Of a stretch of DNA of 64,000 nucleotides, positions 44,768 to 58,952 are shown piece by piece (the stretch's first letter is position 1; each line of letters starts with the position of its first letter). The position numbers and the translations under genes are program-made. Where the stretch lies: contig JAWLEH010000003.1 in the NCBI GenBank assembly GCA_041686215.1, positions 22,046 to 86,045 of the forward strand. Reading direction: 5' to 3'. The stretch is from Balneolaceae bacterium. Its GTDB lineage: Bacteria; Bacteroidota; Rhodothermia; Balneolales; Balneolaceae. The notes under the pieces are model-generated. The model did no database searches. It saw only the letters and a list, made by a program, of their open reading frames with translations, and had not been told where the DNA came from.

Positions 44768-46282
44768 TTAGAAAAAGCCCATCGCTTTCTTGTCGTAGGA
44801 GATCAGCATGTTTTTGGTCTGCTGATAGTGGCTGAGCATCATCTTATGATTCTCACGGCCAAAGCCTGACTTCTTGTATCCGCCGAAGGCTGCATGAGCG
44901 GGATAGGTGTGATAGCAGTTCACCCACACGCGGCCCGCTTTGATGGCACGCGGCACCTGGTAGAGTTCATGGGCATCACGGGTCCATACGCCGGCGCCGA
45001 GGCCGTAGAGCGTGTCATTGGCGATGGAAATGGCATCATCCACATCTTTGAAGGTGGTTAGCGATGTTACCGGCCCGAAAATCTCCTCCTGGAAAACGCG
45101 CATAGAGTTGTCGCCGCCAAATATGGTAGGCTGGATGTAGTAGCCGCTGGAGGTGCCGTTGCTGCCCACTTCAGCCTTGCCGCCGCCAACCAGTACTTTG
45201 GCACCTTCTTCCCGGCCTACCTCAAAATAATTGAGGATCTTCTCATACTGATCGTTTGATGCCTGGGCGCCTACCATGGTTTCATCATCCAGGGGGTGCC
45301 CCATTTTGATCGCTTTCACGCGTTCGATCACCCGCTCTGTGAATTCATCGGCGATCGACTCCTGTACAAGAATTCTGGATGGGCACGTGCAAACCTCACC
45401 CTGGTTCAGAGCAAACAAGGCGGCGCCTTCCAGCACTTTGTCGAAGTATTCGTCGTCTGCGTCCATCACGCTTTCGAAAAAGACATTGGGACTTTTGCCA
45501 CCCAGTTCCAGCGTTACGGGAATGATGTTTTCGGATGCATATTGCATAATCAGACGGCCGGTGGTGGTTTCGCCGGTGAAGGCAATCTTTGCGATCCGTT
45601 CGTTGGTGGCCAGCGGCTGACCGGCTTCCGGACCAAAACCGTTTACAACATTCAGGACCCCGTCTGGAATCACATCACCAACCAGCTCCAGCATCACCAT
45701 AATGCTTGCGGGTGTCTGCTCGGCCGGTTTCACAACCGTACAGTTACCTGCAGCCAGTGCGGGGGCAATTTTCCATGCAGCCATCAGCATTGGAAAGTTC
45801 CAGGGGATAATCTGGCCCACAACACCGAGCGGCTCCGGCAGGTTGATGGATACCGTATGTGCATCGTGTTCAGAAATACCACCTTCCTGTGTGCGAATAG
45901 CGGCAGCAAAATACCGGTAGTGATCTACCACCAGCGGGAGGTCGGCATTCATGGTTTCACGGATCGGCTTTCCGTTGTCGATCGTTTCAACACGTGCCAG
46001 GTACTCCAGGTTTTCTTCAATAATATCAGCCATTTTATTCAGAACCGAGGCCCGTTCAGCAGCTGATGATCTGTTCCATTCTTTTGCGGCTTCATGAGCG
46101 GCATCGAGGGCCATCTCAATATCTTTTTCGTTAGACCGCGCACATTTTGTAAAAGGCTTGCCGTCTACCGGTGAAATATCATCGAAATATTCGCCATCAA
46201 CCGGGGCTACAAACTTGCCACCGATATAGTTGTCATACTTTTCTTTAAAATCCGGACGTTCATGTAACATATTGATCTCCAT
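44768..46282 (-). CDS. NAD-dependent aldehyde dehydrogenase
   Basis: 504 aa with [21 protein letters not shown] (catalytic Glu), [11 protein letters not shown] (catalytic Cys) and EEIFGPV. Confidence 0.92.
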
Positions 46283-46433
46283 TAGTTAACTGAGTAATGA
46301 TAGCCTCAGTATGACTAAAAAAGCGCTTTCATTCTTGGCGGTATCTATCAAAAAGTATCGCGATCGTCTCAATTTGGTTTATACCGGTTGTTTATCTATA
46401 ATTCTTTAACTCACTTGGAAAGCGCTTTTCCGA

Positions 46434-47369
46434 ATGAAAAATTATTCTGCTATGATTAACCAGTCTTTAGTTCGCGAATATAAAAATCCGCCTCAACAGC
46501 TTGTGGAGAACCGGACCAGCTATGCGGGAAGAGATGCGGTTTTTTCGGTTTACGATACCTACCAGGAAGCGCAAATGGTGGAGCTGAAATCAGACAGCCC
46601 GATGTATTGCGGAATGATATCAGGAAAGAAGGTTATCCACTCAGGAGAAGAAACACCCTTCGAGTTTGTGCCAAAGGAATCTCTTGTTCTGCCCCCGGAT
46701 ACCACCATTTATATAGATTTTCCGGATGCCCGGATGAATGAACCCACCAAATGCATTACGGTAGAGTTGCCGCTGTCGAGGATTGATGAGATCGTAGCCC
46801 GGATGAACGACCAGCTGCCGCGGACTAAAACATCGGGTGAATGGGAATACGACGCTTCCGCTTCTGTACATTTTTCCAATACCGAATCTGTCGACCTGTT
46901 GATTCGAAAGCTTTTTCACATTTTCACTGAGGAACACGACCAAAAAGATCTGCTTGTGGAGATGAATACCTCGGAACTGATTGTTCATATGCTGCAGACA
47001 GAGTCGCGAAACCTTCTGCTGAAAAATTACCGGAAGCACGTAACCAGGAGCGGACTCGCGGCGGCGGTTGAATATATAAGCAAGAATCTCGACCGGTCGA
47101 TCTCAATAAAAAAGCTGGCCGATATTGCCTGTATGAGTAAAGCTTCCTTTTATCGCTACTTTAACAATGAGTTTGGGATGAGCCCGGTAGAGTATATCAA
47201 CCAGGAGAGAGTGAAAAAAGCGTGCAGACTGCTTCGCAATGAAAACCTGAACGTTACAGAGGTTAGTTTCAAACTTGGGTATTCCAGTTTGAGCCATTTT
47301 ATCAAACTGTTTAAAGAGCATACCGGTACCACGCCGAAGCAGTACCAGTTAAAAAAAGTGAGTGCCTGA
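46434..47369 (+). CDS. AraC family transcriptional regulator
   Basis: 311 aa. The C-terminal dual HTH reads ISIKKLADIACMSKASFYRYFNNEFGMSPVEYINQERVKKACRLL...VTEVSFKLGYSSLSHFIKLFKEHTGTTPKQY. It is divergent from the aldehyde DH operon. Confidence 0.85.
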   Translation: MKNYSAMINQSLVREYKNPPQQLVENRTSYAGRDAVFSVYDTYQEAQMVELKSDSPMYCGMISGKKVIHSGEETPFEFVPKESLVLPPDTTIYIDFPDARMNEPTKCITVELPLSRIDEIVARMNDQLPRTKTSGEWEYDASASVHFSNTESVDLLIRKLFHIFTEEHDQKDLLVEMNTSELIVHMLQTESRNLLLKNYRKHVTRSGLAAAVEYISKNLDRSISIKKLADIACMSKASFYRYFNNEFGMSPVEYINQERVKKACRLLRNENLNVTEVSFKLGYSSLSHFIKLFKEHTGTTPKQYQLKKVSA

Positions 47370-47955
47370 TTTTATCATTTGCCTTTCCATATTTAGCGAC
47401 ATCAGTTTGAGCATCCATTTCTTCAAAACAGGACAACATTTCCTCTCGTATCGAAGATTCGCTGTATCATTTTGAGACATTCCGGATCTATCCAGGCCGT
47501 TAAAAATCTATAACCGACTGGTACAGGAGTCATCATAAACTGGCTTCTAATGTTTTTAATCTGTTGTTATTCAATAGGTTACAGTTGTTGCAAATCATTT
47601 AAGATCCTTTCTATAAAAAAACGCTAATTATGAACAAAGTTGAGATGTTCATTTATTCAATGGCGTAAGGAGTTGAGAGTTTCACTTTTTGTTTATAAGA
47701 AATGAATAATTAACTCTTATACACTTTCACTTAGTGAATAATGTACGCGGAGTACAAAAGCGTAAAGCAACGCTGCGGAACCTCATCAGAAATGATGGGG
47801 GGTGACCACCACAACGATGCCTTGCCTGACGGATAAATATTCAAATTGTCCAGGCAAATCTAACGCGCTTTTCAGGCTCCCCTAATAATAATTGCGACTA
47901 AACTATAATACGGTCGCTGCTACACAAGAAACTGAAATTATAGGAGTGAGCAAGG

Positions 47956-47985
47956 CCCGGCACAGATTGAGTGCCGGGTACTTTT
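47956..47985 (+). terminator. terminator-like hairpin 40 nt upstream of the first curlin gene (possible attenuator)
   Basis: cccggcac-agattga-gtgccggg forms a perfect 8-bp GC-rich stem, followed by tactttt. It lies inside a 655-bp ORF-free leader. Confidence 0.45.
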
Positions 47986-48024
47986 AAAGACGAAATTGAG
48001 AGAAATCTCTGAATAAAAAGCGCA

Positions 48025-48768
48025 ATGAAATTAACACTGTCAATATTTGTACTGAGTCTTAGCATCGCCTTCGGGGCGATTGCTCAGGGCAATGAGGCCA
48101 TGATCGAGCAGCTGGGCAGCAGCCACGGTGCGATTATTGGGCAGGTGGGCTTGCAGAACAGCGCAACGTCCTTTCAAGGGGGAGAAAATAACAGCTTTAC
48201 ACTACATCAGGTTGGTTCTCATGAGACAACAATTGAGCAGGCCGGCGCAGATAACACCGCTACAGTACAGCAGTGGGCAGGTGTTCAAAACAGCGAGCCG
48301 GGTGTATCTGCTGCATTTCTGGAACAGACAGGAACAGGAAATGAAATTTCAATAAGCCAGTATGGTGAGCATGTCACAGATATTGAGCAGTCAGGCAGTC
48401 AAAACTCTATTGATTTGACACAAGCGCAAAGTAATTCTACAGTTTCCTCTCTCGGAGAGGAATATGGCAGCGGCGCTTTTGCACTGTTGATGCAGCATGG
48501 TTTCAGCAACGACATCGTGCTGGCGCAAAACGGATCCCACTACGCTGAGATTACTCAGAACGGGAGCCAAAACACAGCGAACGTGATGCAGGACGGACTT
48601 GATCTGAGCCATCTGGCCAGGATTGAGCAGGACGGATCGGGTAACGACGCCACAATTGAGCAGTATGGCAGTCAGAGTTCAGCCGTCATCCGGCAGCACG
48701 GAAACGGGCATTCAGCCCACATACAACAGGCTGGCTATGGAAATCAAACCACAGTCATCCAAAACTAA
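48025..48768 (+). CDS. secreted curlin-repeat protein (CsgA/CsgB family), paralog 1
   Basis: 247 aa with the signal peptide MKLTLSIFVLSLSIAFGAIA/QG. About 18 units of x-x-Q-x-G-x-x-N-x-A/S-x follow, ending ARIEQDGSGNDATIEQYGSQSSAVIRQHGNGHSAHIQQAGYGNQTTVIQN. The mature protein has no Cys and is Q/N/G/S-rich. Confidence 0.8.
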   Translation: MKLTLSIFVLSLSIAFGAIAQGNEAMIEQLGSSHGAIIGQVGLQNSATSFQGGENNSFTLHQVGSHETTIEQAGADNTATVQQWAGVQNSEPGVSAAFLEQTGTGNEISISQYGEHVTDIEQSGSQNSIDLTQAQSNSTVSSLGEEYGSGAFALLMQHGFSNDIVLAQNGSHYAEITQNGSQNTANVMQDGLDLSHLARIEQDGSGNDATIEQYGSQSSAVIRQHGNGHSAHIQQAGYGNQTTVIQN

Positions 48769-48842
48769 CACAGAACAATTCTGAGAGAGGAGTTGACGCT
48801 CAGATGTCTAATAAATCAATGCAAATAAATCAAAACAGACCT

Positions 48843-48919
48843 ATGAAAACACTACTTACACTTACTACAGCACTCCTTTTTACGACAGGAGCAGCATTTG
48901 CACAAAGCAATGATGCAAC
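48843..48919 (+). repeat. 77-nt exact direct repeat, copy 1 (signal-peptide region of curlin paralog 2)
   Basis: atgaaaacactacttacacttactacagcactcctttttacgacaggagcagcatttgcacaaagcaatgatgcaac is identical to 49972-50048. Confidence 0.95.
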
Positions 48920-49682
48920 GGTGGACCAGGTTGGAAATCAAAATGAAGTTACCATTACACAGGTGTATCAGGCCGGCGGCTCCGGTGATGACAACGAGGC
49001 ATTTGCTACACAGACAGGTGACAATAACGCTGCAACAGGACTGAACCAACGCGGGGCCGGAAACTGGTATGAAATCGTGCAAACTGGCGACAATAACCTT
49101 GTAGACCGCTACCCGAACCAGGGTTCCACCCAGGGCGGCAGCTATGATGGCTATATCTCTATTACGCAGCTCAATGATGATAATAAGGTGTGGGATGCAG
49201 ACCAGGCGGGCTCCGAAAACAGCTTAACGGTTACACAGAGAGGCGGAGACATTGTTAATGTTGAAGCCCAGATAAGTCCGGAAGGCGGAGTCGGGAATAC
49301 GATCGTCATTGATCAGTTCGGCGGTGGAAATGCAGTTGGTGAATTTAGTTCCAACGGCTCCGGTGCGTACCAGGAAGGCGAAGAAAACTCCATGGACATT
49401 ACACAGGAAGGCGGGGCGAAAGCCGGCATAGCCTCAGTATATGTAAGCGGTGCTACCGAAAAGTTCTTCCGAAGCACTGTTGAGGGCGGCCAGGGACTTA
49501 TTCAGCTTGGGGATGATAACATGTTGAATATTGATCAGGATGGCGCAAGCACCGTCGGTTTCGTGATTCAGAAAGGAGACATGAACGAAGCGAGCGTATA
49601 CCAGACTGGTGATTATCATACAGCCACTGTCAGCCAGGCAGGAAACAGCAACGAGGCTGCAATTACCCAGAGCGAAATCTGA
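48843..49682 (+). CDS. secreted curlin-repeat protein, paralog 2
   Basis: The signal peptide is MKTLLTLTTALLFTTGAAFA/QSNDAT. Repeats include VDQVGNQNEVTITQ, ATQTGDNNAATGLNQRGAGNWYEIVQTGDNN, VTQRGGD, IDQFGGGNAV, IDQDGAS and VSQAGNSNEAAITQ. The start was moved from 48804 to 48843 because the first 77 nt from 48843 are identical to the start of paralog 3. Confidence 0.8.
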   Translation: MKTLLTLTTALLFTTGAAFAQSNDATVDQVGNQNEVTITQVYQAGGSGDDNEAFATQTGDNNAATGLNQRGAGNWYEIVQTGDNNLVDRYPNQGSTQGGSYDGYISITQLNDDNKVWDADQAGSENSLTVTQRGGDIVNVEAQISPEGGVGNTIVIDQFGGGNAVGEFSSNGSGAYQEGEENSMDITQEGGAKAGIASVYVSGATEKFFRSTVEGGQGLIQLGDDNMLNIDQDGASTVGFVIQKGDMNEASVYQTGDYHTATVSQAGNSNEAAITQSEI

Positions 49683-49971
49683 TAATCCATTTCATCTGGT
49701 CCCCGGTGGGTTCCCTTGAAGTTACCCGGCGAGCACAGATGACAGGAGATTTCAGGGAGACACAAACGGAGAGAATCAATAGGAGCGTGAGTTGACCTCT
49801 GTACAATAAATATGCTTACCAAAAGAAAACTGCTTTAGAGCATAGATGACAATTACAGCGACCATTACCCAGAACTAATTTTGTTCTGAGTGTACATTTG
49901 CAACCCCGTGAGGCTTGACCGCCTTGCGGGGGATTCGCTGATTTTAAACAACTATTAAAATTAATAAGGAA

Positions 49972-50048
49972 ATGAAAACACTACTTACACTTACTACAGC
50001 ACTCCTTTTTACGACAGGAGCAGCATTTGCACAAAGCAATGATGCAAC
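49972..50048 (+). repeat. 77-nt exact direct repeat, copy 2 (signal-peptide region of curlin paralog 3)
   Basis: Base-for-base identical to 48843-48919. The sequences diverge immediately afterwards (g gtg gac versus t ctt agc). Confidence 0.95.
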
Positions 50049-50898
50049 TCTTAGCCAGGATGGCGATGATAACGAAGCCAATATCGAACAGGTTGGTGGT
50101 GATAACAGCGCAGAACTGAACCAGGGATTTGATAATAATGGCCATTTTCAGGGACAAAGCAACGCCTTTGGGGAAATTATCCAGGATGGGGATAAGAATT
50201 CTGCTGAGCTGAACCAGCGAGCCTGGGGTGCGGACGGTAACGAACACTCCATCGATCAGTCTGGCTATATGAACTCCGCGGATGTGGATATCTACAACGG
50301 CAATAATTTTGGTTTCCTGCTTCAGAATGGAACTGAAAACAGTGCCCGTATGGTACAGTCAGGAAGAGACAATGAGTCCCTGATTGTCCAGGAAGGTAAT
50401 GAAAACTATGCTCAAAGCAGGACAACCGGCGGTTCCGGAAACCAGACGGCTATCGTGCAGGGTGTGCCTGGAGGAGAAATGCCGCCAGAAGACGGAATCC
50501 CCTCAAATGACGGCCCGCAGCTCCAGGGTTCAGAAGTAGGTCCGCTCGTGCCATTTTCTGCGGATAATGCAGCAACACTAAAAATAGAAGGAAGCGATAA
50601 CCTGGCCGGCATTCTGCAGGTAGGTTTCAGCAACAGCGCGGGATCAAACCCACAGTGGAGCGGCGATCTTGGAATTGATGTGGTCGGCGACGGAAACATG
50701 TCCGGCATTGCTCAGATTGGCGAAATGAACGAAGCTAACATATCTGTGATGGGGAATGCAAACATGGCCGGTATTCTGCAGTTAGGTGCTGAAAACACCG
50801 CTTCTATCATGCAGGATGGATCCGGAAACAGTGCAGTGATTCTACAATCAGACGGCATGGGCGGAGGATTACCCGGCGGAGTGCCCGTTGTAGAATAA
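49972..50898 (+). CDS. secreted curlin-repeat protein, paralog 3 (bipartite, Pro/Gly-rich linker)
   Basis: 308 aa. The N-terminal half carries IEQVGGDNSAELNQ, IIQDGDKNSAELNQ, IDQSGYMNSA, LLQNGTENSARMVQSGRDNESLIVQEGNEN and AIVQ. A linker GVPGGEMPPEDGIPSNDGPQLQGSEVGPLVPF follows. The C-terminal half has a different unit (NLAGILQVGFSNSA, NMSGIAQIGEMNEA, NMAGILQLGAENTASIMQDGSGNSAVILQS) and the tail GMGGGLPGGVPVVE. Confidence 0.75.
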   Translation: MKTLLTLTTALLFTTGAAFAQSNDATLSQDGDDNEANIEQVGGDNSAELNQGFDNNGHFQGQSNAFGEIIQDGDKNSAELNQRAWGADGNEHSIDQSGYMNSADVDIYNGNNFGFLLQNGTENSARMVQSGRDNESLIVQEGNENYAQSRTTGGSGNQTAIVQGVPGGEMPPEDGIPSNDGPQLQGSEVGPLVPFSADNAATLKIEGSDNLAGILQVGFSNSAGSNPQWSGDLGIDVVGDGNMSGIAQIGEMNEANISVMGNANMAGILQLGAENTASIMQDGSGNSAVILQSDGMGGGLPGGVPVVE

Positions 50899-50913
50899 AA
50901 TAGAGAAACAGAA

Positions 50914-50965
50914 ACAGATGTAATCTGCCCGCGGTATAAAAACAGGCTGCGGGCCATCTGTTTTC
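50914..50965 (+). terminator. rho-independent terminator after curlin paralog 3
   Basis: Nested stem: acagatg (50914-50920) pairs with catctgt (50955-50961), and gcccgc (50927-50932) pairs with gcgggc (50949-50954). It is followed by tttt. Confidence 0.65.
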
Positions 50966-51008
50966 ATAACGATACAGGGATATTTATACCAGAAAAAACA
51001 GGAGACCT

Positions 51009-51830
51009 ATGATAAATCGACTGCTACATCTTTTAATACTATTGTTTGTGGGTACGGCTATTGCCACTGCACAACAGCATGACGCTGAAATTCTTCAGCT
51101 TGGCGGCGATAATAACTTCGCTGAAATCGGCCAGATGGGAGAGCTTAATTCAGCATTCATCAGCCAGGAAGCCAGTAACGATATCGCCACTATTGAACAA
51201 GCCGGTGAAAATAATCAGGCCACAGTGAAACAGGGCTTTCACCCGGAAGCGAACGGGTTCAGAACCGATGCTGAAATCATTCAAAATGGAAACCATAATG
51301 AAGCCACCATCACACAAACCGGCCGGCACGATGTCTCCGGATTTATCCATCAAACAGGCAACAACAATGTTGCACTTGTTGAGCAAGATAAAGCCGACGA
51401 TTTCAATAACGCCCGGGTAGAAGTGATTCAGACCGGAGGTGAACAAAACCTGGTGCAACAGCAGCAGGAAGACCGGGATGGAGTTTTCGGGCAGGTTCAC
51501 CAGGACGGTTCGTTTAACTTTGTGGGCCAGACACAAACCATCGGTGGCGGAGGAAACGGTCAGTTTTCTCACGTGGTAAGTAACCAGGAAGGTGACAATA
51601 ACCACGCAGAAGTGAGCCAGCACGGAGAGCTTGGCAGTGGTGAAACTCATCAATACGGGAACTATAACCAAGCATTTCTGACTCAGGAAGGAGACGAAAA
51701 CACCGGGTACATTTACCAGCATGGAATGCATAACATGGCCGCTGTCAGCCAAATAGGGAACAATAACAGCGGGTCTGTTACTCAGAATGGCGACAACAAT
51801 ACGGCCACAATTTTACAGGAAGTTAATTGA
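51009..51830 (+). CDS. secreted curlin-repeat protein, paralog 4
   Basis: 273 aa with the signal peptide MINRLLHLLILLFVGTAIATA/QQ. Repeats include ILQLGGDNNFAEIGQMGELNSAFISQ, IEQAGENNQATVKQ, IIQNGNHNEATITQTGRHD, IHQTGNNNVALVEQ, VIQTGGEQN, VSQHGELG, THQYGNYNQAFLTQEGDENTGYIYQHGMHNMAAVSQIGNNNSGSVTQNGDNNTATILQ. Confidence 0.8.
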   Translation: MINRLLHLLILLFVGTAIATAQQHDAEILQLGGDNNFAEIGQMGELNSAFISQEASNDIATIEQAGENNQATVKQGFHPEANGFRTDAEIIQNGNHNEATITQTGRHDVSGFIHQTGNNNVALVEQDKADDFNNARVEVIQTGGEQNLVQQQQEDRDGVFGQVHQDGSFNFVGQTQTIGGGGNGQFSHVVSNQEGDNNHAEVSQHGELGSGETHQYGNYNQAFLTQEGDENTGYIYQHGMHNMAAVSQIGNNNSGSVTQNGDNNTATILQEVN

Positions 51831-51863
51831 GACAAGACGTTAGGTAGGTTAGATATAAGTTAG

Positions 51864-51898
51864 ATCCGGGAGCTGTGATGGTTCCCGGATTTCTTTTT
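51864..51898 (+). terminator. rho-independent terminator after curlin paralog 4
   Basis: atccggga-gctgtgatggt-tcccggat forms a perfect 8-bp stem, followed by ttcttttt. Confidence 0.75.
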
Positions 51899-51923
51899 CA
51901 ATTTTTTAACAAACGGAGAGAAA

Positions 51924-52343
51924 ATGCGAGTGCTAAACTTTTTGATACCACTTTTATTGGGAGTTGCATCAGCAGCAGAAAGCCGTCAGGCAGAGACAAT
52001 GAGCGACCGCCACGGTAATGTAAAGGTGTTCCAGGGGATTGATGCGAATGTTGATGATTCCGTAAAACAGGCTGGTGAGGATAACAGGATTTTCCTATAC
52101 AGAGCAATACCTTCCGGCGGGTATGCGGATAGCATTGATATAAAACAAGATGGAAAAGAGAACAAAATTCTTTCATTTATCTCAGGAGAACAACCGTTTC
52201 ATCAACTGCTGAAACAGAGGGGTGATGAAAATTCTGTTCTGATTCTTCAATCATCAAAACACGACAGCACGGCACAAGACCCAAAAGGAATATCTGTGCA
52301 TCAGAAAGGAAATGGAAATCGTGTAACGATCACCCGGAATTAG
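51924..52343 (+). CDS. short, divergent curlin-like repeat protein, paralog 5 (candidate minor/nucleator subunit)
   Basis: 139 aa with the signal peptide MRVLNFLIPLLLGVASA/AE. It has four charged variants of the motif: VKQAGEDNRIFLY, IKQDGKENKILSF, LKQRGDENSVLILQ and VHQKGNGNRVTITRN. Confidence 0.5.
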   Translation: MRVLNFLIPLLLGVASAAESRQAETMSDRHGNVKVFQGIDANVDDSVKQAGEDNRIFLYRAIPSGGYADSIDIKQDGKENKILSFISGEQPFHQLLKQRGDENSVLILQSSKHDSTAQDPKGISVHQKGNGNRVTITRN

Positions 52344-52369
52344 GCAGAAGCTGACAGCGTAAACCAACA

Positions 52370-52735
52370 ATGAAAACCCACGAATTTCATATAGCCCTAT
52401 TAATGATTACGCTGGTTGCCGCCAGTGTGATCTCATACAATTATTTGAATTCAGGGAATACTCCGGGTGAAGGCAGTACATTTACTTACGAGTGCGATAT
52501 TTCAGCAAAAAAGGTTGAAGATGTATCGCCCATACATATCGAACCCCCACAGGTGTCCCGATTCTTAAAAGAAAGGGAGAAGTCTTGTGAAAAAGTGACT
52601 CGGAACATCAGGGAAAAGCTGTATATGTGTTCAGAACGTTATCGCTCATCTGATTCGGCATTACAACTATTTAAGCACGGATTTATGGGCCGAGTTCAGA
52701 ATGATAGGGAAGTATCTGCGCCCAAAAATGAATAA
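52370..52735 (+). CDS. hypothetical single-pass membrane protein in the curlin gene cluster
   Basis: 121 aa with an N-terminal TM/signal-anchor (IALLMITLVAASVISY), three Cys and a basic C-terminal half. I recognise no family. Confidence 0.35.
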   Translation: MKTHEFHIALLMITLVAASVISYNYLNSGNTPGEGSTFTYECDISAKKVEDVSPIHIEPPQVSRFLKEREKSCEKVTRNIREKLYMCSERYRSSDSALQLFKHGFMGRVQNDREVSAPKNE

Positions 52736-53359
52736 ACTAACGAAAGTAATAGCATTGAAACGGGCTTTCTCAGGGACAATTTCCAGGTTTTCAGAACGGT
52801 GAATTGTAACTCGCGGACTTTCTCTAAATCATCTCAATAAGCTGAGCTTTACTGAATAAGGAAACCAACGGAGTTGATTCAGGTATGGTAAACAGCTGTA
52901 GCGGGAAAACGGTAACACCTTGTTTCTGAATTAGATGGAATCGATTTAGCTCATCATTTCTAAATAAATTTATCCATTACTCTGATCGTATTTGAACACA
53001 GGCTATCTGTCAGGTTAATAGATTTTGGGAGACGATATTCACACAAGTTCTTTATTGAGTATTCAGAAATGTACAGTAAAAAGAGACTTACAGGAAAAGC
53101 TCTGAAATTTTCAGTAAAAAATGAGAGATTAAACTGCCGGATAAAATAACACCTGTAATATTTGGCCCATATAGCTTTCACAGATAATGCATTACTGATC
53201 TGTAAAAAAATCGGCCGTTTTTTTGATTAATAAAAAAGAGAAAAAGTCGATAAGCAAATAGAAGCCTTCAAATGCCGGGCTCAAAAAAATACGCAACTGT
53301 AGATTACCCGTTTTGGTATACCGGCATGGATAGATCATAAATCATCATCAAATGTACTT

Positions 53360-54013
53360 ATGAAGTCACGATATTTACTTATTATGACCGCTCTTTTAGC
53401 AGCGGCTGTACTCATCACCTCTTGCGCCAAGGATACCATAGAAGCAGAAACGTTTGGAAGTATTGGGGGAATTGTATTGGACGGAGAGACGGACGAGGGA
53501 ATTGTTTCTGCAAATATTACAACAACACCGGCAACCAACGCCATTTTATCTGAGAACGGCGGCCAGTTTACGCTGGAAGAAGTGCCAACGGGTAACTACA
53601 CGATTTCAGCCCGCAAAAACGGGTATAAAAACAGCTCTGTGAGTGTTGCGGTAAGAGAAGGAAAAACAGCCTCGGCATTTGTTGTGATGCAGCCGGATGA
53701 TGAAGAGCCAGACTCAACTGTAACAATGGACGAATTTGAAGCCTCTATCACCTCATGGTTTAATGATGCGGAGGGTGACAGCTCATTTGCGGATGTGAAT
53801 TACCGGGTGTCGAACAACAGTGATTCCGGGAATATCAGCGAGTATGAGGTCTATTTTGAAGTTGAAACAAATAGCGGTACCACGTTCTTTTTTGATGTGG
53901 CCGGTGAAGATCTGCGGGCTGGACAGAGCCGTAACGGGAATTTACGTGGATATATTCGGGATAATGAAGCCACAGACGTCATTATTTCCGATATATGGAT
54001 TTCTGAAAACTAA
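53360..54013 (+). CDS. lipoprotein with carboxypeptidase-regulatory-like (CarboxypepD_reg) domain, first gene of the csgEFG-type operon
   Basis: 217 aa with the lipobox LLAAAVLITSC. The block GSIGGIVLDGETDEGIVSANITTTPA...GGQFTLEEVPTGNYTISARKNGYKNSSVSVAVREGKTA is the classic CarboxypepD_reg pattern. It ends 24 nt before the CsgE-like gene. Confidence 0.6.
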   Translation: MKSRYLLIMTALLAAAVLITSCAKDTIEAETFGSIGGIVLDGETDEGIVSANITTTPATNAILSENGGQFTLEEVPTGNYTISARKNGYKNSSVSVAVREGKTASAFVVMQPDDEEPDSTVTMDEFEASITSWFNDAEGDSSFADVNYRVSNNSDSGNISEYEVYFEVETNSGTTFFFDVAGEDLRAGQSRNGNLRGYIRDNEATDVIISDIWISEN

Positions 54014-54037
54014 CCTGTACTGACCCTAATCTGCTGA

Positions 54038-54868
54038 ATGAAATGTCTATTCAACATAGTATGTGCATTTTTTCTTGTAAGCCTTTTCGGTGGAGTTGCC
54101 GTTGCGCAAGACAGTACACTCACGCAGGAGTATCCCGCTGAAATCTACATTCAGCAGTCTGATGGAGATGGAATCCTGTTCGTAAATGTTGAGCCGGACC
54201 TGGATGAAGTGTTGATTCTTAGAGAAAATAATTTTCGCCAGATTCAGCTCCGTTTTCCCGACCAGCAAAATTCGGATATGGTCAGTGAAGAAATTCAGTG
54301 GGAGGTGGCGGATGAAGAAAATGTAACCGGTGAAATTATTGAGCGTTCTGATTCTTCTGGAGGTCAGATGGAGAACCGTCTGGCTGAAATGTTAAGCGAG
54401 GCGCTACGCCGCAGCCCTGCTGATGTGTCTGAAAATAGAGATGTCCAGGCGGTGGTTGAAGATCCGGATGAGGAACAGCTTGATGAGTTTCGTGAAGCGT
54501 TCCAGGCAGTGCTTGATGAGGATAACAGTACAGAAGAAGAACCGGATCAACCCGACCCCGCCGGCTTGTTTGAAGATATTGATGGTATGGTGTTGGATGA
54601 AACAAGATCGAAAGTGGGTCGTGATTTTTACAGCGCCTTTTTCTCGGCCTGGGAAAAGCCGGATGATACCAGGAATTACATTATCCGAATTGTTGAACGA
54701 CCGGGCCCAAGCATGGCGAGTGTTGTTTCTGTTGATGTGAATTATGAAAAAATATTTGAAATGCGGCTCCATCCCGGTGATCAGCGGATCAAACAGGCCG
54801 GCGACTACGCTGTGGATGAAGTGATCTCGTACCTTGAAGAAAGAAAAGCGAACCCGTTAACTTATTAA
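54038..54868 (+). CDS. csgE: curli assembly protein CsgE-like, with ~150-aa acidic N-terminal extension
   Basis: 276 aa with a signal peptide. The C-terminal ~95 aa (GMVLDETRSKVGRDFYSAFFSAWEKPDDTRNYIIRIVERPGPSMASVVSVDVNYEKIF) is collinear with E. coli CsgE as I recall it ([55 protein letters not shown]). Confidence 0.8.
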   Translation: MKCLFNIVCAFFLVSLFGGVAVAQDSTLTQEYPAEIYIQQSDGDGILFVNVEPDLDEVLILRENNFRQIQLRFPDQQNSDMVSEEIQWEVADEENVTGEIIERSDSSGGQMENRLAEMLSEALRRSPADVSENRDVQAVVEDPDEEQLDEFREAFQAVLDEDNSTEEEPDQPDPAGLFEDIDGMVLDETRSKVGRDFYSAFFSAWEKPDDTRNYIIRIVERPGPSMASVVSVDVNYEKIFEMRLHPGDQRIKQAGDYAVDEVISYLEERKANPLTY

Positions 54869-54878
54869 TTCTGATGAT

Positions 54879-55304
54879 ATGAAACGTATCTACCTTATTG
54901 TATTGAGCAGCCTTTTTGTTGTACTGTCTTTTTCGGCGGAAAATGCAGCGGCCCAGGAAATGGTATACTCACCAAAAAATCCTGCCTTCGGAGGAAATCC
55001 CGGTAATTACAGCTGGCTTTTAAATAGTGCTGACACTCAAAATCTCTTTGAGGAATCACGGCAATCCGGGTTTCAGCGCGACCCTCTTGCCGATTTCGAA
55101 AATTCACTTCAGCGACAGGTGCTTTCGCAGCTGACGCGCGACCTGGTACGGCGTGAGTTTGGCGAAGGGGATGAGATCGAAGAGTCTCGGTTTGAGTTTG
55201 GCGAATTTAATATTGAGGTGGTACCGGGAAGCGACGGTGTGAGAATCCAGATATTTAATGTGCTTACCGGCGATGAAACCAGTGTAACGATTCCAAACTT
55301 TTAG
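54879..55304 (+). CDS. csgF: curli production assembly/transport component CsgF
   Basis: 141 aa with a signal peptide. The mature N-terminus MVYSPKNPAFGGNPGNYSWLLNSADTQN parallels E. coli [27 protein letters not shown] (from memory). Confidence 0.85.
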   Translation: MKRIYLIVLSSLFVVLSFSAENAAAQEMVYSPKNPAFGGNPGNYSWLLNSADTQNLFEESRQSGFQRDPLADFENSLQRQVLSQLTRDLVRREFGEGDEIEESRFEFGEFNIEVVPGSDGVRIQIFNVLTGDETSVTIPNF

Positions 55305-55307
55305 ATT

Positions 55308-56687
55308 ATGATACGTACTCCGCAGATTCTTTTATTCAGCCTGATCGCCGCGTTTGTTCTGAACGGTTGCTCGGGTACCATGAAACCGATGCATACCGAA
55401 CGGGCAACGTTTGGAACCGTCAGCGAGGTATATCCGCAGCTGAAAGAACTTCCTGAACCAGAAGAAAAAATTGTAGCTGCAGTCTACCGGTTTCGCGATC
55501 AAACCGGGCAGTATAAGCCGTCGGACCGTGTGGCGAGCTGGTCAACCGCGGTAACACAGGGGGCTACATCCATCCTGATGAAGTCAATGGAAGAATCGGG
55601 CTGGTTTGTGCCGATTGAACGGGAAAGTATATCAAACCTGCTGAATGAACGGCAGATTATCCAGAATATTCGCCAGCAGCATTCTGGTCCGCAGGGCCCG
55701 CAACAGCTTCCACCCCTTCTTTTTGCAGGTGTGATGCTGGAAGGCGGTATTGTAGGCTACGATACGAACGTGATTACCGGCGGAGTTGGAGCGCGTTACC
55801 TGGGTTCAGGCGGGTCCGGGCAATACCGAAAAGACCAGGTTACTATTTACCTGCGGGCAGTTTCCACACAAAGCGGACGTGTTCTGAAAACTGTACATAC
55901 TACGAAGTCGATCATTTCGCAACAGCTTGAAAGCGGAGTTTTTCGGTTTATTGATACAAACCGGCTGCTTGAAGCCGAAGCCGGATATACCTACAATGAA
56001 CCCCCGGTGATGGCTGTAACCGAAGCCATTGACGAAGCCGTGAAACAGTTGATTTTGGAGGGAGTTGAAGAGGACATTTGGTCGCCGCAAAACCCGGACG
56101 AAATCCTGGCATATCGCGAACGGTTTAATTTCAAGAAACAGAAAGAGGAACAGCTTCAGCGGGATTATTTTGGCCTGATTGAGCAGGAAGATCTTCGGGG
56201 CGGCTGGTCGGTTTCTGCAAATGGCTTGATGGGATCAGTCATCGGAAATTATAATAACCCGGATATGAACCCCGGAGTTGGGCTGCAGTTCGAAAAAGGC
56301 CTCACAAGATATTTTTCGATGAAGCTTGGCGGTCAGAGGACCCAAATCAGCGCCCCGGACGCCTTTTCAAGCCCGGTAAATGCGGCTGATCTATTGCTAA
56401 ACGTGTATGCAGCTCCCGGCCATGTATTTTCGCCTTACTTCTCTGCAGGAGGCGGTGCGTTTATCTACGATCAAAACCATCCGGATCTGGAAGATCAGGT
56501 TCTCCCGTTCATGGGAGTTGAAGCCGGTATTGATTACCGTTTCAATAAACAGTTTGGTGCTCGCATCAGCTCAACCTATCGATACCTGCTAACTGACGGC
56601 CTGGATGGTATTTCTATGGGGAAATATAATGATCAGCACTGGGGTGTGAACCTGGGAGTTACGTATCAGCCTGCGTTTTTGAGGTGA
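55308..56687 (+). CDS. csgG: curli secretion channel lipoprotein CsgG, fused to an extra C-terminal beta-barrel-like domain
   Basis: 459 aa with the lipobox FVLNGCSG. Residues ~50-265 are collinear with E. coli CsgG: VYRFRDQTGQYKP, STAVTQGATSILMKSMEESGWFVPIERE, NLLNERQII, MLEGGIVGYDTNVITGGVGARYLG, SGVFRFID, GYTYNEP. E. coli CsgG is about 277 aa, so roughly 185 extra C-terminal residues remain. Confidence 0.9.
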   Translation: MIRTPQILLFSLIAAFVLNGCSGTMKPMHTERATFGTVSEVYPQLKELPEPEEKIVAAVYRFRDQTGQYKPSDRVASWSTAVTQGATSILMKSMEESGWFVPIERESISNLLNERQIIQNIRQQHSGPQGPQQLPPLLFAGVMLEGGIVGYDTNVITGGVGARYLGSGGSGQYRKDQVTIYLRAVSTQSGRVLKTVHTTKSIISQQLESGVFRFIDTNRLLEAEAGYTYNEPPVMAVTEAIDEAVKQLILEGVEEDIWSPQNPDEILAYRERFNFKKQKEEQLQRDYFGLIEQEDLRGGWSVSANGLMGSVIGNYNNPDMNPGVGLQFEKGLTRYFSMKLGGQRTQISAPDAFSSPVNAADLLLNVYAAPGHVFSPYFSAGGGAFIYDQNHPDLEDQVLPFMGVEAGIDYRFNKQFGARISSTYRYLLTDGLDGISMGKYNDQHWGVNLGVTYQPAFLR

Positions 56688-56751
56688 TGAATACATATCC
56701 CTTTAAGAGTTGAAGTTGAGCACATTTTCTGTGCGTGAACCGGCGAGGGGG

Positions 56752-57450
56752 TTACCGGTCGAAGTACTGATTTAATTGTGTCGCCATCTCTTCTTTTTTA
56801 CCGGAAAGATCCTGCACAACCGTTCCTTTTTCAAGAAGCACGATCCGGCTGCAAATATCCGTGACGTGAACAAGATCGTGACTGGAAATTAAAAAAGTGG
56901 TTTCCTGGTTTTTATTTTCCGTGGTGATAAGCTTTTTCAAGCGGTTCTGAGAAGTAGGGTCGAGATTTTCAAACGGTTCATCCAGAATGATCAGGTCCGG
57001 TTCACTGAGGAATGCAGCTGCTATACCGGTTTTTTTGCGATTTCCCTTCGACAGGCTTCGGATATACTTTTTTTTAAATCTGATCTCGTCATTGAATAGC
57101 GGGTCAAATTGCCTGAGCCTGTCTTCAGCAGCTTTTGGGGATACCTGGTAGACTTCCCGGAGCATATCAAAGTATTCATCCGGAGTGAGAAAGGGCAGCA
57201 ACATGTGTTCGTCGAGGTAGGAGCCGACTTGTGTTTTCCAGTCCTCGGTTTGATGAACGGCCCGGCCGAAAAGGGTAACGGTTCCGGATGTGGAGCGGAT
57301 CAAATCGAGAATGAGTCGGAAAAGGGTCGTTTTGCCGGCCCCGTTATTTCCTACAAGCCCGAAGCACTCCCCTTTGCTGATCTCAAGTGCCGGTATGTTC
57401 AGTACCGTCTCTCCGTAATATCTTTTCACCAAATTTTGAATAGAAATCAT
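56752..57450 (-). CDS. ABC transporter ATP-binding protein
   Basis: 232 aa with Walker A GNNGAGKTT, signature LSKGNRKKTGIAAA and Walker B LIILDEPFENLD. Its start overlaps the upstream gene's stop (ATGA at 57450-57447). Confidence 0.85.
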   Translation of the reverse strand: MISIQNLVKRYYGETVLNIPALEISKGECFGLVGNNGAGKTTLFRLILDLIRSTSGTVTLFGRAVHQTEDWKTQVGSYLDEHMLLPFLTPDEYFDMLREVYQVSPKAAEDRLRQFDPLFNDEIRFKKKYIRSLSKGNRKKTGIAAAFLSEPDLIILDEPFENLDPTSQNRLKKLITTENKNQETTFLISSHDLVHVTDICSRIVLLEKGTVVQDLSGKKEEMATQLNQYFDR

Positions 57451-58952
57451 GAACTGCTTCTGAAGGTATGTGAAATTTTATGTCTGCTCTTGCTGAGCAT
57501 ACGTACTGTTACACCGGAAAGTTGTTTGTGAAAAAGAAGCCCGAGAATACCGAATAGACCTACAGCAGCAAGCCCGGCTGAGGCGTTGAAAATTAAAGCA
57601 AATGGCATATAAACGAAATACGGGACGATGAAAATGGGCACAGCCATAATGAACTGGGCCACACCCACACCTTCGTAGTTAAACATGGCGCTTTTGTTGA
57701 TGTCCATAGGCTTAGGTTGCCAAAGTGCCATCAGGCTGATGATGTGAATACCTATGCCCAGGTTATAGAGAACGGCAGCTGTGTGAACAGCAAGTATATG
57801 CCAGCCGAAATATACATAAGGCAGAGCCAGCAGGTATGATATGACTCCGGATGCTCCCAGGATAAGCATCTTGCCACCAATGAGATCGCTCAGCCCGTTT
57901 TTTTGCACCATAAAGTGGTCAAAAAAAGAGGTGTTCCAGCTGAGAAAAAACTGGGCGTATTGAATCATGAAAAAACCGGTGACAAAGATTCCGGCAAAGA
58001 GGTAGGTGTGCGAAATGTTGACTGAATTACTGTCTAGCTCTGGCATGTAAAAAATCAGGCCGTACAGTAGTCCAAAAAGGGAAAAGTAGAGGTAGCTACG
58101 ACTCTTCTTGTGCCGCAGAATCAGCTTTAACTCAGTGTCGGCAACACGCCCGGCATTGCCAAAAGCATAAAACAGGTTTGGAAAGGCTGAACTGCTTTCT
58201 TTTTTGGTTGTGATTTTCTCTTCATCTAAGTAAGCCCGGCGAACGTTGAACCTGTGGAGGCTGATGTACGAGATAATACAAATAATGGCTGCCAGTAAGG
58301 GTGATGCAGGAAAATGAAGAGGCAGTGAAAAAAACGGGGCAAACCAGGCGCCAGGACTAAAGATGCCAAGGTAAAGGGTGACGAATGGTGAGGCCCATAT
58401 CATAAGCGCCAAAAATGCTACAGGTAACGGAACCGTTACATTTCTCAGCACCAAAACGAACCAGTGGACCAGGTTGCTGATCAGGAGAATAGTAACCAGC
58501 CAGCCAGTTGCAGCCAAAGTCCCGAATGCGGGCGACATTTCCATGATTGTTACCGGCAGAAATAGAATGAGCGGAACCAGTGTGAACGGAGTGAGGAGTG
58601 ACCGGACAAGCAGAAAGTGAATGATTCCCTTGCGGCTGACGGGAAGATGGAGAAACAGGGAAAGGTTAAACTGCGGTTTTTTCTGGAAGGCAAACCGTAC
58701 GGCAAACTCAATCAAAAAATAAAAAATGAGCACTTGATTGAGGAAAGAAGGTACATTGTTGATCTCCAGAACGTTTACCAGGATCGGGCTCAGAAATACC
58801 CCGATGGCAACCAGGTAGGTCAGTAACAGGAGCACCAAAAGTAAAACCAACAGACCGCTCAGCATACTTCGCCCGAGGGAAAAGGAGCGGGAAAGCTCAA
58901 GTGCCCAAAGGCGTATAAATTGGGGTGCCATTCGCAGGCCTGATTTAAGCAT
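57447..58952 (-). CDS. large polytopic membrane protein, putative permease partner of the ABC ATPase
   Basis: 501 aa with about 12 hydrophobic segments and no motif I recognise. It is translationally coupled to the ATPase gene. Confidence 0.5.
   Translation of the reverse strand: MLKSGLRMAPQFIRLWALELSRSFSLGRSMLSGLLVLLLVLLLLTYLVAIGVFLSPILVNVLEINNVPSFLNQVLIFYFLIEFAVRFAFQKKPQFNLSLFLHLPVSRKGIIHFLLVRSLLTPFTLVPLILFLPVTIMEMSPAFGTLAATGWLVTILLISNLVHWFVLVLRNVTVPLPVAFLALMIWASPFVTLYLGIFSPGAWFAPFFSLPLHFPASPLLAAIICIISYISLHRFNVRRAYLDEEKITTKKESSSAFPNLFYAFGNAGRVADTELKLILRHKKSRSYLYFSLFGLLYGLIFYMPELDSNSVNISHTYLFAGIFVTGFFMIQYAQFFLSWNTSFFDHFMVQKNGLSDLIGGKMLILGASGVISYLLALPYVYFGWHILAVHTAAVLYNLGIGIHIISLMALWQPKPMDINKSAMFNYEGVGVAQFIMAVPIFIVPYFVYMPFALIFNASAGLAAVGLFGILGLLFHKQLSGVTVRMLSKSRHKISHTFRSSS

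Follow-up and report, generated by a model that had tools for sequence, protein, structure and literature searches.

Does a run of ten genes in a member of the Balneolaceae encode a complete curli-type (type VIII secretion) functional-amyloid system, and in what respects does its machine depart from that of Escherichia coli? Curli are the standard model of controlled amyloid secretion, and their channel, CsgG, is sold as a nanopore; to our knowledge, mechanistic work on curli has so far addressed the enterobacterial machine only. The locus in question occupies positions 48025–56687 of a 64,000-nucleotide stretch of contig JAWLEH010000003.1 (hereafter the window) and consists of ten open reading frames (ORFs) in a row on the + strand, namely five curlin genes, a small ORF with a transmembrane (TM) helix, a lipoprotein gene, and csgE, csgF and csgG. 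A sequence-only reading of the window had proposed here a curli-type system in which the structural subunit exists as several paralogs and the CsgE/F/G machine is modified. Profile matches, sequence alignments and synteny all support this core proposal, and we consider it very probable that the locus is a complete curli-type system of a salt-loving, Rhodohalobacter-like member of the Balneolaceae. All ten ORFs were found in the ORF list where that reading had placed them, on the single strand it had given, and its gaps of 24, 10 and 3 nt between the lipoprotein, CsgE, CsgF and CsgG genes, as well as its spacer of about 0.6 kb (624 nt), were reproduced.

CsgE, CsgF and CsgG each matched the corresponding Pfam family above its cut-off (20.8 bits for PF03783 of CsgG), which was the profile check suggested beforehand, and the alignments with the E. 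coli proteins that had been drawn by eye were reproduced: CsgE against PDB 2NA4 (E = 4e-7), CsgF against the CsgFG complexes 6L7A and 6SI7 (E = 6e-7), and residues 9–265 of CsgG against residues 4–259 of E. coli CsgG (E = 4e-64). CsgE can be aligned with the E. coli protein just from residue 180 onward. CsgF keeps the N-terminal CsgG-binding motif NPAFGGNPGNYSWLLNSA, aligned to E. coli CsgF in 6L7A, which corresponds to the segment that the CsgFG structures show within the barrel of CsgG. In CsgG, the lipobox cysteine, Cys21, is aligned with that of E. coli and is invariant in the clade, and the N-terminal half of the protein was matched by Foldseek to the CsgG structures 4UV2 and 4UV3. An assignment as an HfaB-type holdfast protein was tried and rejected, since the HfaB model reaches 34.9 bits and the CsgG model 221.8 bits, and since csgE and csgF flank the gene. 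By their profile scores, the Csg proteins of the window are family members rather than equivalogs.

The CsgG constriction-loop segment (residues 70–82) reads P-S-D-R-V-A-S-W-S-T-A-V in the window and P-Y-P-A-S-N-F-S-T-A-V in E. coli, which places a Ser-Trp pair against the Asn-Phe pair of the E. coli CsgG constriction. Ser77 and Ser79 are invariant and Trp78 is nearly invariant among 14 clade members. Because the loop reads A-S-W-S rather than A-S-N-F, and is conserved in the clade, it implies that the pore constriction of the window CsgG would differ in chemistry from that of E. coli.

The five genes at the upstream end encode the putative fibre subunits. Pfam Curlin_rpt (cut-off 20.7 bits) was matched in all five, at 93–108 bits in four and at 30.9 bits in the fifth, and the properties that the sequence-only reading had ascribed to them were confirmed by counting: there are 9, 11, 11, 12 and 4 Q/E-x-G-x-x-N motifs, spaced mainly by 11 or 22 residues; no cysteine occurs in any of the five; and Q, N, G, S and T together make up 47–50% of four curlins and 34.5% of the fifth. 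Segments resembling signal peptides were seen by eye at the N-termini, and the mature isoelectric points (pI) of the four large curlins are acidic, at 4.0–4.4. Among solved structures, the best match of paralog 4 (its residues 33–267, 235 in all) is CsgA R15.5 of Pontibacter korlensis (8C50, E = 2.3e-26), a Bacteroidota curlin solved by cryo-electron microscopy that forms β-solenoid fibrils in vitro (Sleutel et al. 2023). Both are acidic multi-repeat curlins, but R15.5 has 15.5 repeats and a pI of 2.98, whereas the window curlins are less acidic, have about 9–12 motifs and contain irregular central segments, most marked in paralogs 2 and 3; the middle of paralog 2 is irregular and repeat-poor. 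In the Pontibacter system the subunit alone, and not the secretion machine, has been studied. No further curlin genes were found elsewhere in the 64-kb window.

The five paralogs are not equally conserved. Paralog 1 matched the NCBIfam models of CsgB (3e-29) and CsgA (1.5e-19), both short of the equivalog cut-off, and has an ortholog in Rhodohalobacter sp. 8-1 (390 bits). Paralog 2 has orthologs in that strain (493 bits) and in two Fodinibius species (292 and 269 bits), in which the other paralogs reach 20–60 bits, far below paralog 2 (all these scores come from L004, L006 and L027 of the related loci described below), and it may have a specialised role. Its start is probably at 48843, since the same signal peptide as in curlin 3 then heads the protein and since public annotation uses this start (279 amino acids, aa). 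The first 77 nt of paralogs 2 and 3 (48843–48919 and 49972–50048), coding for the signal peptide MKTLLTLTTALLFTTGAAFAQSNDAT, are identical; beyond them the two genes diverge, with 35% protein identity overall, and the upstream DNA is unrelated, a pattern which suggests recent 5′ gene conversion or partial duplication between them. The fifth curlin has a near-neutral pI and resembles the others just marginally, its best BLASTP match being paralog 4 (7.6e-7). It gave no PDB match in the sequence search, strain 8-1 as the nearest relative in culture lacks an ortholog of it, no clear ortholog is seen outside the source organism, and it is possibly a minor or nucleator-type subunit. A special role might be held by paralog 2, which is conserved across genera, or by paralog 5 with its small size and relatively basic character. 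Long ORFs (up to 200 aa) cross the curlin genes in antisense (e.g. 51150–51752, − strand) and have no family matches; they look like by-products of the curlin repeat composition rather than genes.

Relative to E. coli, the window adds three parts, which are a C-terminal barrel on CsgG, a 180-aa extension on CsgE and a conserved lipoprotein. The presence of an extra lipoprotein and of extra domains on CsgE and CsgG had been pointed out as a peculiarity of this locus; the parts are real, but they are a conserved trait at the level of the clade and not the peculiarity of one genome. CsgG was modelled with AlphaFold2 as a monomer from a 14-sequence alignment. In the model, a helix (residues 263–285) is followed by eight antiparallel strands within residues ~300–453, with a predicted local distance difference test score (pLDDT) of 74–93, and Foldseek matched the C-terminal half of the protein to NspA (target TM-score, TMt, 0.80), the N-domain of OprF (0.73) and OmpA (0.62–0.68), and also to OmpX, Ail and OmpW. 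Profile matches of the C-terminus are weak (OMP_b-brl, 7e-4; PorG, 3e-5), with OMP_b-brl reaching 20.2 bits on the window protein and thus staying below its cut-off of 28.7; many clade homologs carry a precomputed PF13505 match. The region is confidently modelled, and so predicted, to be an eight-stranded OmpA/NspA-like outer-membrane barrel with both termini in the periplasm. It shares the eight antiparallel strands of the model with known barrels of this size (the OmpA N-domain, NspA, OmpX/Ail, OmpW and PorG of the type IX secretion system); unlike them, it is fused to CsgG instead of standing alone or preceding OmpA_C, and the identity to them is 12–19%.

A search of the C-terminal 198 residues of CsgG against 1.84 billion representatives returned just 84 clusters at E ≤ 1e-3. 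Their full-length proteins are mostly 450–480 aa long and are matched at about residues 280–460, i.e. they are CsgG fusions, and for this reason the barrel is, as judged from the search, a small family dedicated to CsgG and almost confined to CsgG fusions. In two giant proteins, P0198 (5241 aa) and P0225 (5636 aa), a barrel segment of about 29 residues (query residues 88–116) was matched in 15 and 9 stretches, respectively; these are probably unrelated repeat proteins.

The N-terminal extension of CsgE is acidic, lies outside the CsgE family and matched no known family in Pfam at E up to 5; the idea that it hides a LysM domain was rejected on the same search. Only two further Rhodohalobacter genomes show a recognisable extension of the window type, with 32% identity. 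Among 38 CsgE homologs of the clade (from loci L004–L084), with lengths from about 150 to 511 aa, PF10627 is present in 38/38, an N-terminal LysM domain in 12/38 and DUF4168 in 4/38. Beside LysM and DUF4168, the extension of the window protein represents a third, unclassified type.

The lipoprotein has its lipobox cysteine, Cys22, invariant in 21 homologs (consensus S-C-A/S-K-D/E), and these homologs share two conserved regions, one of them with an invariant YEVYF motif; their public names are 'DUF2012' or 'carboxypeptidase regulatory-like'. In its AlphaFold2 model (pLDDT 85.9), β-sandwiches are located at residues 32–110, where the fold is transthyretin-like (TTL), and at residues 126–214. 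With Foldseek, domain 1 matched the TTL domains of carboxypeptidase D (TMt 0.85–0.87, root-mean-square deviation 1.5–1.6) and, more weakly, the 5-hydroxyisourate hydrolase 3QVA (E = 1e-3, TMt 0.55); the structures of CsgC and CsgH are absent from the top 50 Foldseek matches of the lipoprotein. In every arrangement of the related loci, its gene stands directly after the last curlin gene or after the small TM ORF.

A comparison of the locus across genomes had been proposed by the sequence-only reading, and it shows that the gene set recurs in 79 related loci. These were retrieved by scanning one genome per species with peptide patterns from the fusion clade; ORFs were called in all 79 and searched with the window proteins, and detailed counts were taken from the 32 loci in which csgG is flanked by 8 kb or more on either side. 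The loci come from Balneolales (Rhodohalobacter, Gracilimonas, Fodinibius, Aliifodinibius and Cyclonatronaceae), from Rhodothermales (Salinibacteraceae, Rubricoccaceae, Rubrivirga and Longibacter), from Bacteroidota (Lewinellaceae and Marinifilum) and from one Gemmatimonadota metagenome-assembled genome (MAG). The CsgG–barrel fusion is present in 75/79 of them. In the well-flanked loci, CsgE and CsgF are each found in 32/32 and a long (fused) CsgG in 31/32; a lipoprotein homolog of ~205–275 aa occurs in 29/32, and a relative of 506–513 aa in two more. The number of curlin genes per locus is 1–6, with four or more in 13/32. Family membership, domain architecture and a conserved synteny are established by these data. 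As judged from these comparisons, the machine belongs to a subtype common to Balneolales, Rhodothermales, some Bacteroidota and one Gemmatimonadota MAG, and the marks of this subtype are a CsgG protomer with a fused eight-stranded barrel, an extended CsgE (often with a peptidoglycan-binding LysM domain), and a lipoprotein encoded after the last curlin gene.

Within this gene set the order is variable. The commonest one in the relatives is csgE-csgF-csgG, curlins, lipoprotein, and in Fodinibius it is csgE-csgF, four curlins, csgG, one curlin, lipoprotein. The order of the window, with the curlins preceding lipoprotein-csgEFG, is a minority one, seen also in L006–L008, L020, L046, L051, L056 and L058, which are the closest relatives of the window and a few others. 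The CsgG protein and the gene order were found to be identical in MAG GCA_964554955.1 and two Logan assemblies (three independent assemblies), and CsgG shares 85% identity with its counterpart in Rhodohalobacter sp. 8-1 and 74% with the one in strain SW132. On these identities, the source organism is assigned to a Rhodohalobacter-like member of the Balneolaceae, in the phylum Balneolota of the Fibrobacterota–Chlorobiota–Bacteroidota (FCB) group. In Rhodohalobacter sp. SW132 (L085/L086, contig QUOK01000001.1) the genes are divided between two sites ~180 kb apart. One has csgEFG by itself; at the other, a LysM-csgE is accompanied by seven curlins, by the lipoprotein and by the AraC–aldehyde dehydrogenase gene pair also seen in the window. 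There the curlin array converges on the AraC gene, and the lipoprotein gene stays with the curlins, not with csgEFG. In an uncultured Rhodohalobacter MAG (L007, 5113–7963), the small TM ORF is all that lies between AraC and lipoprotein-csgEFG, and curlin genes are absent from this stretch, so that the curlin array appears to be a variable cassette within the genus.

How does the locus compare with what has been described? With the E. coli and Salmonella curli system it shares CsgG (30–40% identity in structural alignments), the plug motif of CsgF, the core domain of CsgE, and Sec-exported, Cys-free, Q/N/G-rich subunits built of curlin repeats. The differences are that the window carries everything on one strand with the structural genes upstream, in contrast to the csgBAC-csgDEFG arrangement of E. 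coli, that it has five curlins of 139–308 aa instead of a CsgA/CsgB pair of ~150 aa, and that it lacks CsgC and CsgD, in addition to the altered constriction and the three added parts described above. Among the ten ORFs, no family match to a CsgD LuxR-type regulator, to CsgC or to CsgH was found in Pfam or NCBIfam.

Several of these features had been singled out as unusual, and the published surveys do not bear this out. According to Dueholm et al. (2012, PMC3521004), csgC and csgD are absent from all Bacteroidetes genera with curli genes except Spirosoma, which has a csgD homolog, so that the absence of CsgD and of CsgC/CsgH is the norm there; up to six csgA/B homologs occur in some genera; gene order varies widely and includes single operons on one strand; and the size of CsgG is unaffected by that of the CsgA homologs. 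In the same survey, CsgA and CsgB are distinguishable in Gammaproteobacteria only, and Salinibacter ruber M8 is listed with CsgE, CsgF, CsgG and three CsgA/B (Table S1). Up to 30 CsgA copies per genome have since been reported (Sleutel et al. 2023), and CsgA/B+CsgEFG is among the five most abundant cluster compositions in a 2025 survey of GTDB v226. Since such features are the norm in publications on curli outside the Enterobacteriaceae, neither the five paralogs (the related loci have one to six), nor the single strand with the structural genes upstream, nor the missing regulator and inhibitor sets the window apart.

The catalogued CsgA/B+CsgEFG clusters of Bacteroidetes and Rhodothermia, e.g. 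those of Salinibacter ruber M8 and Spirosoma, have the same composition as the window, without csgC or csgD [Spirosoma's csgD homolog apart] and with several csgA/B genes, and loci from Salinibacteraceae, Rubricoccaceae, Lewinellaceae and Marinifilum were among the fetched relatives that carry the window gene set. Most relatives differ from it in having the order csgEFG, curlins, lipoprotein. The surveys scored the Csg families only, and mention of the CsgG barrel, the CarboxypepD_reg lipoprotein or LysM-CsgE was not found in them. No description of any of these three parts in curli loci was found in the literature searched, an incomplete library in which such silence is absence of evidence; the extra parts of the variant appear to be undescribed.

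By homology to E. coli, the system would work as follows. The five Cys-free curlins, four of them acidic, would be exported by the Sec pathway; in the periplasm, CsgE would hand them to the lipoprotein channel CsgG and gate their entry; the N-terminus of CsgF would plug the CsgG barrel, with the remainder of CsgF reaching the cell surface; and the extracellular curlins would stack into β-solenoid amyloid fibres. Secretion, fibre formation and a division of labour among the five paralogs are proposed by analogy, and the roles assigned to the barrel, the CsgE extension and the lipoprotein are likewise putative.

Some observations weigh against the curli-type reading or the form given to it here. 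The NCBIfam models of E. coli CsgA, CsgB, CsgE, CsgF and CsgG were all matched below their equivalog cut-offs (for CsgG, 221.8 bits against 505). The CsgA and CsgB models were matched by all five paralogs at similar, sub-threshold scores, and neither profiles nor comparison singled out a CsgB-equivalent nucleator among them. The fifth curlin is only weakly curlin-like, and no single Curlin_rpt stretch in it is significant alone. The β-solenoid fold of the window curlins is putative, the homology to 8C50 being that of paralog 4. The CsgG domain itself was poorly modelled, with pLDDT below 50 in the transmembrane-hairpin regions, since a monomer was modelled of what is a nonameric pore. The frequency of the CsgG–barrel fusion is partly a matter of construction, because the loci were retrieved with peptide patterns of the fusion clade. 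Literature searches returned no experimental report on curli fibres, their expression, or Congo red or thioflavin T binding in Balneolaceae.

Table 1. Positions of the genes and other features of the curli-type locus in the window (in residues for the barrel strands)
Feature	Positions	Strand	Length	Details
AraC-family regulator	46434–47369	+		AraC_N and HTH_AraC domains; divergent from an aldehyde dehydrogenase gene
Curlin paralog 1	48025–48768	+	247 aa	Sec signal peptide; 9 QxGxxN motifs; mature pI 4.35; Curlin_rpt 99.3 bits, 7 stretches
Curlin paralog 2	48843–49682 (ORF opens at 48804)	+	279 aa	Curlin_rpt 96.7 bits
Curlin paralog 3	49972–50898	+	308 aa	Curlin_rpt 93.3 bits
Curlin paralog 4	51009–51830	+	273 aa	12 QxGxxN motifs, most regular repeats; Curlin_rpt 108.2 bits
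Terminator-like hairpin and T-run	51862–51892	+		14-pair G+C-rich stem between curlin 4 and curlin 5
Curlin-like protein 5	51924–52343	+	139 aa	4 QxGxxN motifs; pI 6.5; 16 K+R; Curlin_rpt 30.9 bits
Small TM ORF	52370–52735	+	121 aa	N-terminal TM helix; upstream of the lipoprotein gene
Spacer	52736–53359		624 nt	Non-coding; no ORF, no Rfam match
Accessory lipoprotein	53360–54013	+	217 aa	Lipobox Cys22; CarboxypepD_reg (Pfam) 8.8e-12
CsgE homolog	54038–54868	+	276 aa	PF10627 75.6 bits, 4.2e-21, residues 181–273 only
CsgF homolog	54879–55304	+	141 aa	PF10614 132.4 bits, 1.5e-38
CsgG lipoprotein channel fused to barrel	55308–56687	+		PF03783 220 bits, 2.7e-65, residues 48–261; channel part at residues 1–265
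CsgG barrel strands (AlphaFold2 model)	residues 300–312, 320–331, 336–347, 355–367, 374–387, 398–411, 416–427, 443–453

The layout of the locus (Table 1) gives some hints about its transcription. The hairpin after paralog 4 is the strongest site of the terminator scan, with an RNA fold of −24.8 kcal/mol (z = −2.46), and it suggests at least three transcription units in the locus, predicted to be curlins 1–4 up to the hairpin, curlin 5 together with the TM ORF, and lipoprotein-csgEFG. A weaker G+C-rich hairpin was seen by eye at ~49905–49945, upstream of curlin 3, where the scan reports just a 5-pair site (49926–49938). Lipoprotein-csgEFG is presumably transcribed from a promoter within the spacer, whose counterparts in L006 and L007 are about 0.45 and 1.3 kb long. 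No promoter could be assigned by the σ70 scan, which gave 12 sites against 14.4 expected, and the Bacteroidetes-type patterns, with 39 TAnnTTTG against 49 expected and 3 TTTG-N-TAnnTTTG against 2.3 expected, were not usefully placed either. A search of positions 46000–57500 against Rfam, at E up to 1, matched no family. The AraC gene is unlikely to be the curli regulator: in the window, L007 and L086 alike, the divergent AraC–aldehyde dehydrogenase pair adjoins the curli locus, but it is not oriented in the same way to the curlin genes in all of them, and the conserved pairing together with this variable orientation led us to reject it as the leading idea.

The small TM ORF matched nothing in Pfam or NCBIfam. 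It belongs to a family at the level of Rhodohalobacter, conserved just over the N-terminal ~35–50 aa (the TM segment, M-x-x-H-E-F/Y-H/Q-I-...), with relatives in L006 (7131–7577, 148 aa) and L007 (6364–6693, 109 aa); in the window and in these two loci it precedes the lipoprotein gene, with non-coding DNA between the two. A 337-aa protein of strain SW132 (L086, 6298–7311) begins with the N-terminus of the TM ORF and has curlin repeats at its end (Curlin_rpt 40.7 bits); one more curlin gene separates this protein from the lipoprotein gene. Two readings of the TM ORF are open to choice, an accessory protein that is anchored in the membrane and evolves fast, or a TM-anchored curlin in decay.

On what the added parts do, the possible explanations diverge. 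The lipoprotein could be the functional counterpart of CsgC/CsgH, a membrane-tethered transthyretin-like inhibitor of periplasmic curlin polymerisation, in which case the system would not truly be inhibitor-less. Its gene follows the curlins as csgC follows csgA in csgBAC, and its first domain has the fold and the matches given above, including the weak one to 3QVA, whose transthyretin-related enzyme family presumably includes E. coli YedX. The transthyretin-related YedX has been reported to be structurally similar to CsgC and CsgH and, in vitro, to inhibit amyloid assembly of CsgA (PMC12925577), and the CsgH gene, too, always lies beside csgA/B (PMC3521004). The YedX findings and the position of the lipoprotein gene make a CsgC/H-like role a testable hypothesis, but we consider it unlikely: neither CsgC nor CsgH is found among those top 50 structural matches, the lipoprotein has no sequence similarity to either family in Pfam or NCBIfam, both inhibitors are soluble whereas the lipoprotein is lipid-anchored, and the CarboxypepD_reg fold is a very common generic β-sandwich with many roles. 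The acidic character of the residues after the lipobox cysteine (C-A-K-D) could instead mean surface exposure, in line with the export signals of Bacteroidetes lipoproteins. That the lipoprotein has a structural task in the outer-membrane machine, or anchors something there, is no less likely. On that explanation, both it and the CsgG barrel would be structural parts (for anchoring, for insertion assisted by the β-barrel assembly machinery (BAM), or for attachment of the fibre at the surface) and not chaperones, and the fibre would be tethered through the lipoprotein and the barrel instead of, or beside, the CsgF–CsgB link. The covalent and almost exclusive fusion of the barrel to CsgG is consistent with this, as are the predicted periplasmic termini of the barrel, which would fit the periplasmic C-terminus of E. 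coli CsgG by way of a linker helix of ~23 residues, the conservation of the lipoprotein with invariant surface motifs such as YEVYF, and the want of a recognisable CsgB-like nucleator. The two-domain lipoprotein model also resembles pilins and the biofilm scaffold protein RbmA, weakly, with poor Foldseek TM-scores of 0.15–0.3 over both domains together. The argument is purely architectural and drawn from predicted models, and the plug motif of CsgF is fully conserved, so that the canonical CsgF route is probably intact; we regard structural roles as a genuine possibility, with the balance of probability somewhat against them.

A more far-reaching picture would make the machine a distinct type VIII secretion subtype, in which a CsgG nonamer is ringed by nine fused barrels, the CsgE cap is tethered by its N-terminal extension to peptidoglycan or another partner, the transthyretin-like tandem β-sandwich lipoprotein serves as a fifth core component that replaces either CsgC/CsgH in countering amyloid formation or CsgB in surface anchoring and nucleation, and several acidic curlins, secreted together, form mixed fibres suited to high salt; taken as a whole, it is tentative and rather doubtful. 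In the opposite direction, the locus might be silent or decaying, with curlin 5, the TM ORF and the 0.6-kb spacer as remnants of a degraded TM-anchored curlin gene. The TM ORF is indeed conserved only at its N-terminus and varies between 109 and 148 aa among Rhodohalobacter genomes, its SW132 counterpart heads a protein with curlin repeats, curlin 5 is missing from strain 8-1, and non-coding spacers of ~0.45–1.3 kb follow the TM ORF in three genomes (the window, L006 and L007). But none of the ten ORFs is interrupted, clear orthologs that keep the invariant residues exist for the four large curlins and for the lipoprotein-CsgEFG set, and the loss of one small gene would not disable the whole system. 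That the spacer itself is a decayed curlin gene was rejected, since tblastx and blastn against relatives show no curlin-like remnant in it. Decay of the locus is unlikely, and an intact curli-type system remains the reading that we prefer.

The locus by itself leaves the picture of curli unchanged, since multiple curlins, a single strand and the lack of csgC and csgD have been known since 2012. It belongs to a variant of the curli machine that is conserved in the FCB group. The modified channel of this variant and its fifth conserved component are concrete and open to testing, and they occur in strains in culture; cultured carriers of this locus type include Rhodohalobacter sp. 8-1, Fodinibius roseus DSM 21986 and Rubrivirga sp. 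IMCC43871. For the many lineages that lack CsgC/CsgH, or in which no CsgB can be recognised, the variant supplies a candidate for the 'missing' inhibitor or nucleator of amyloid formation, and its CsgG proteins are new scaffolds in which Ser-Trp takes the place of Asn-Phe at the constriction. Being natural, widespread and equipped with extra parts, such a variant would reveal which features of the type VIII secretion system are dispensable and which are replaceable.

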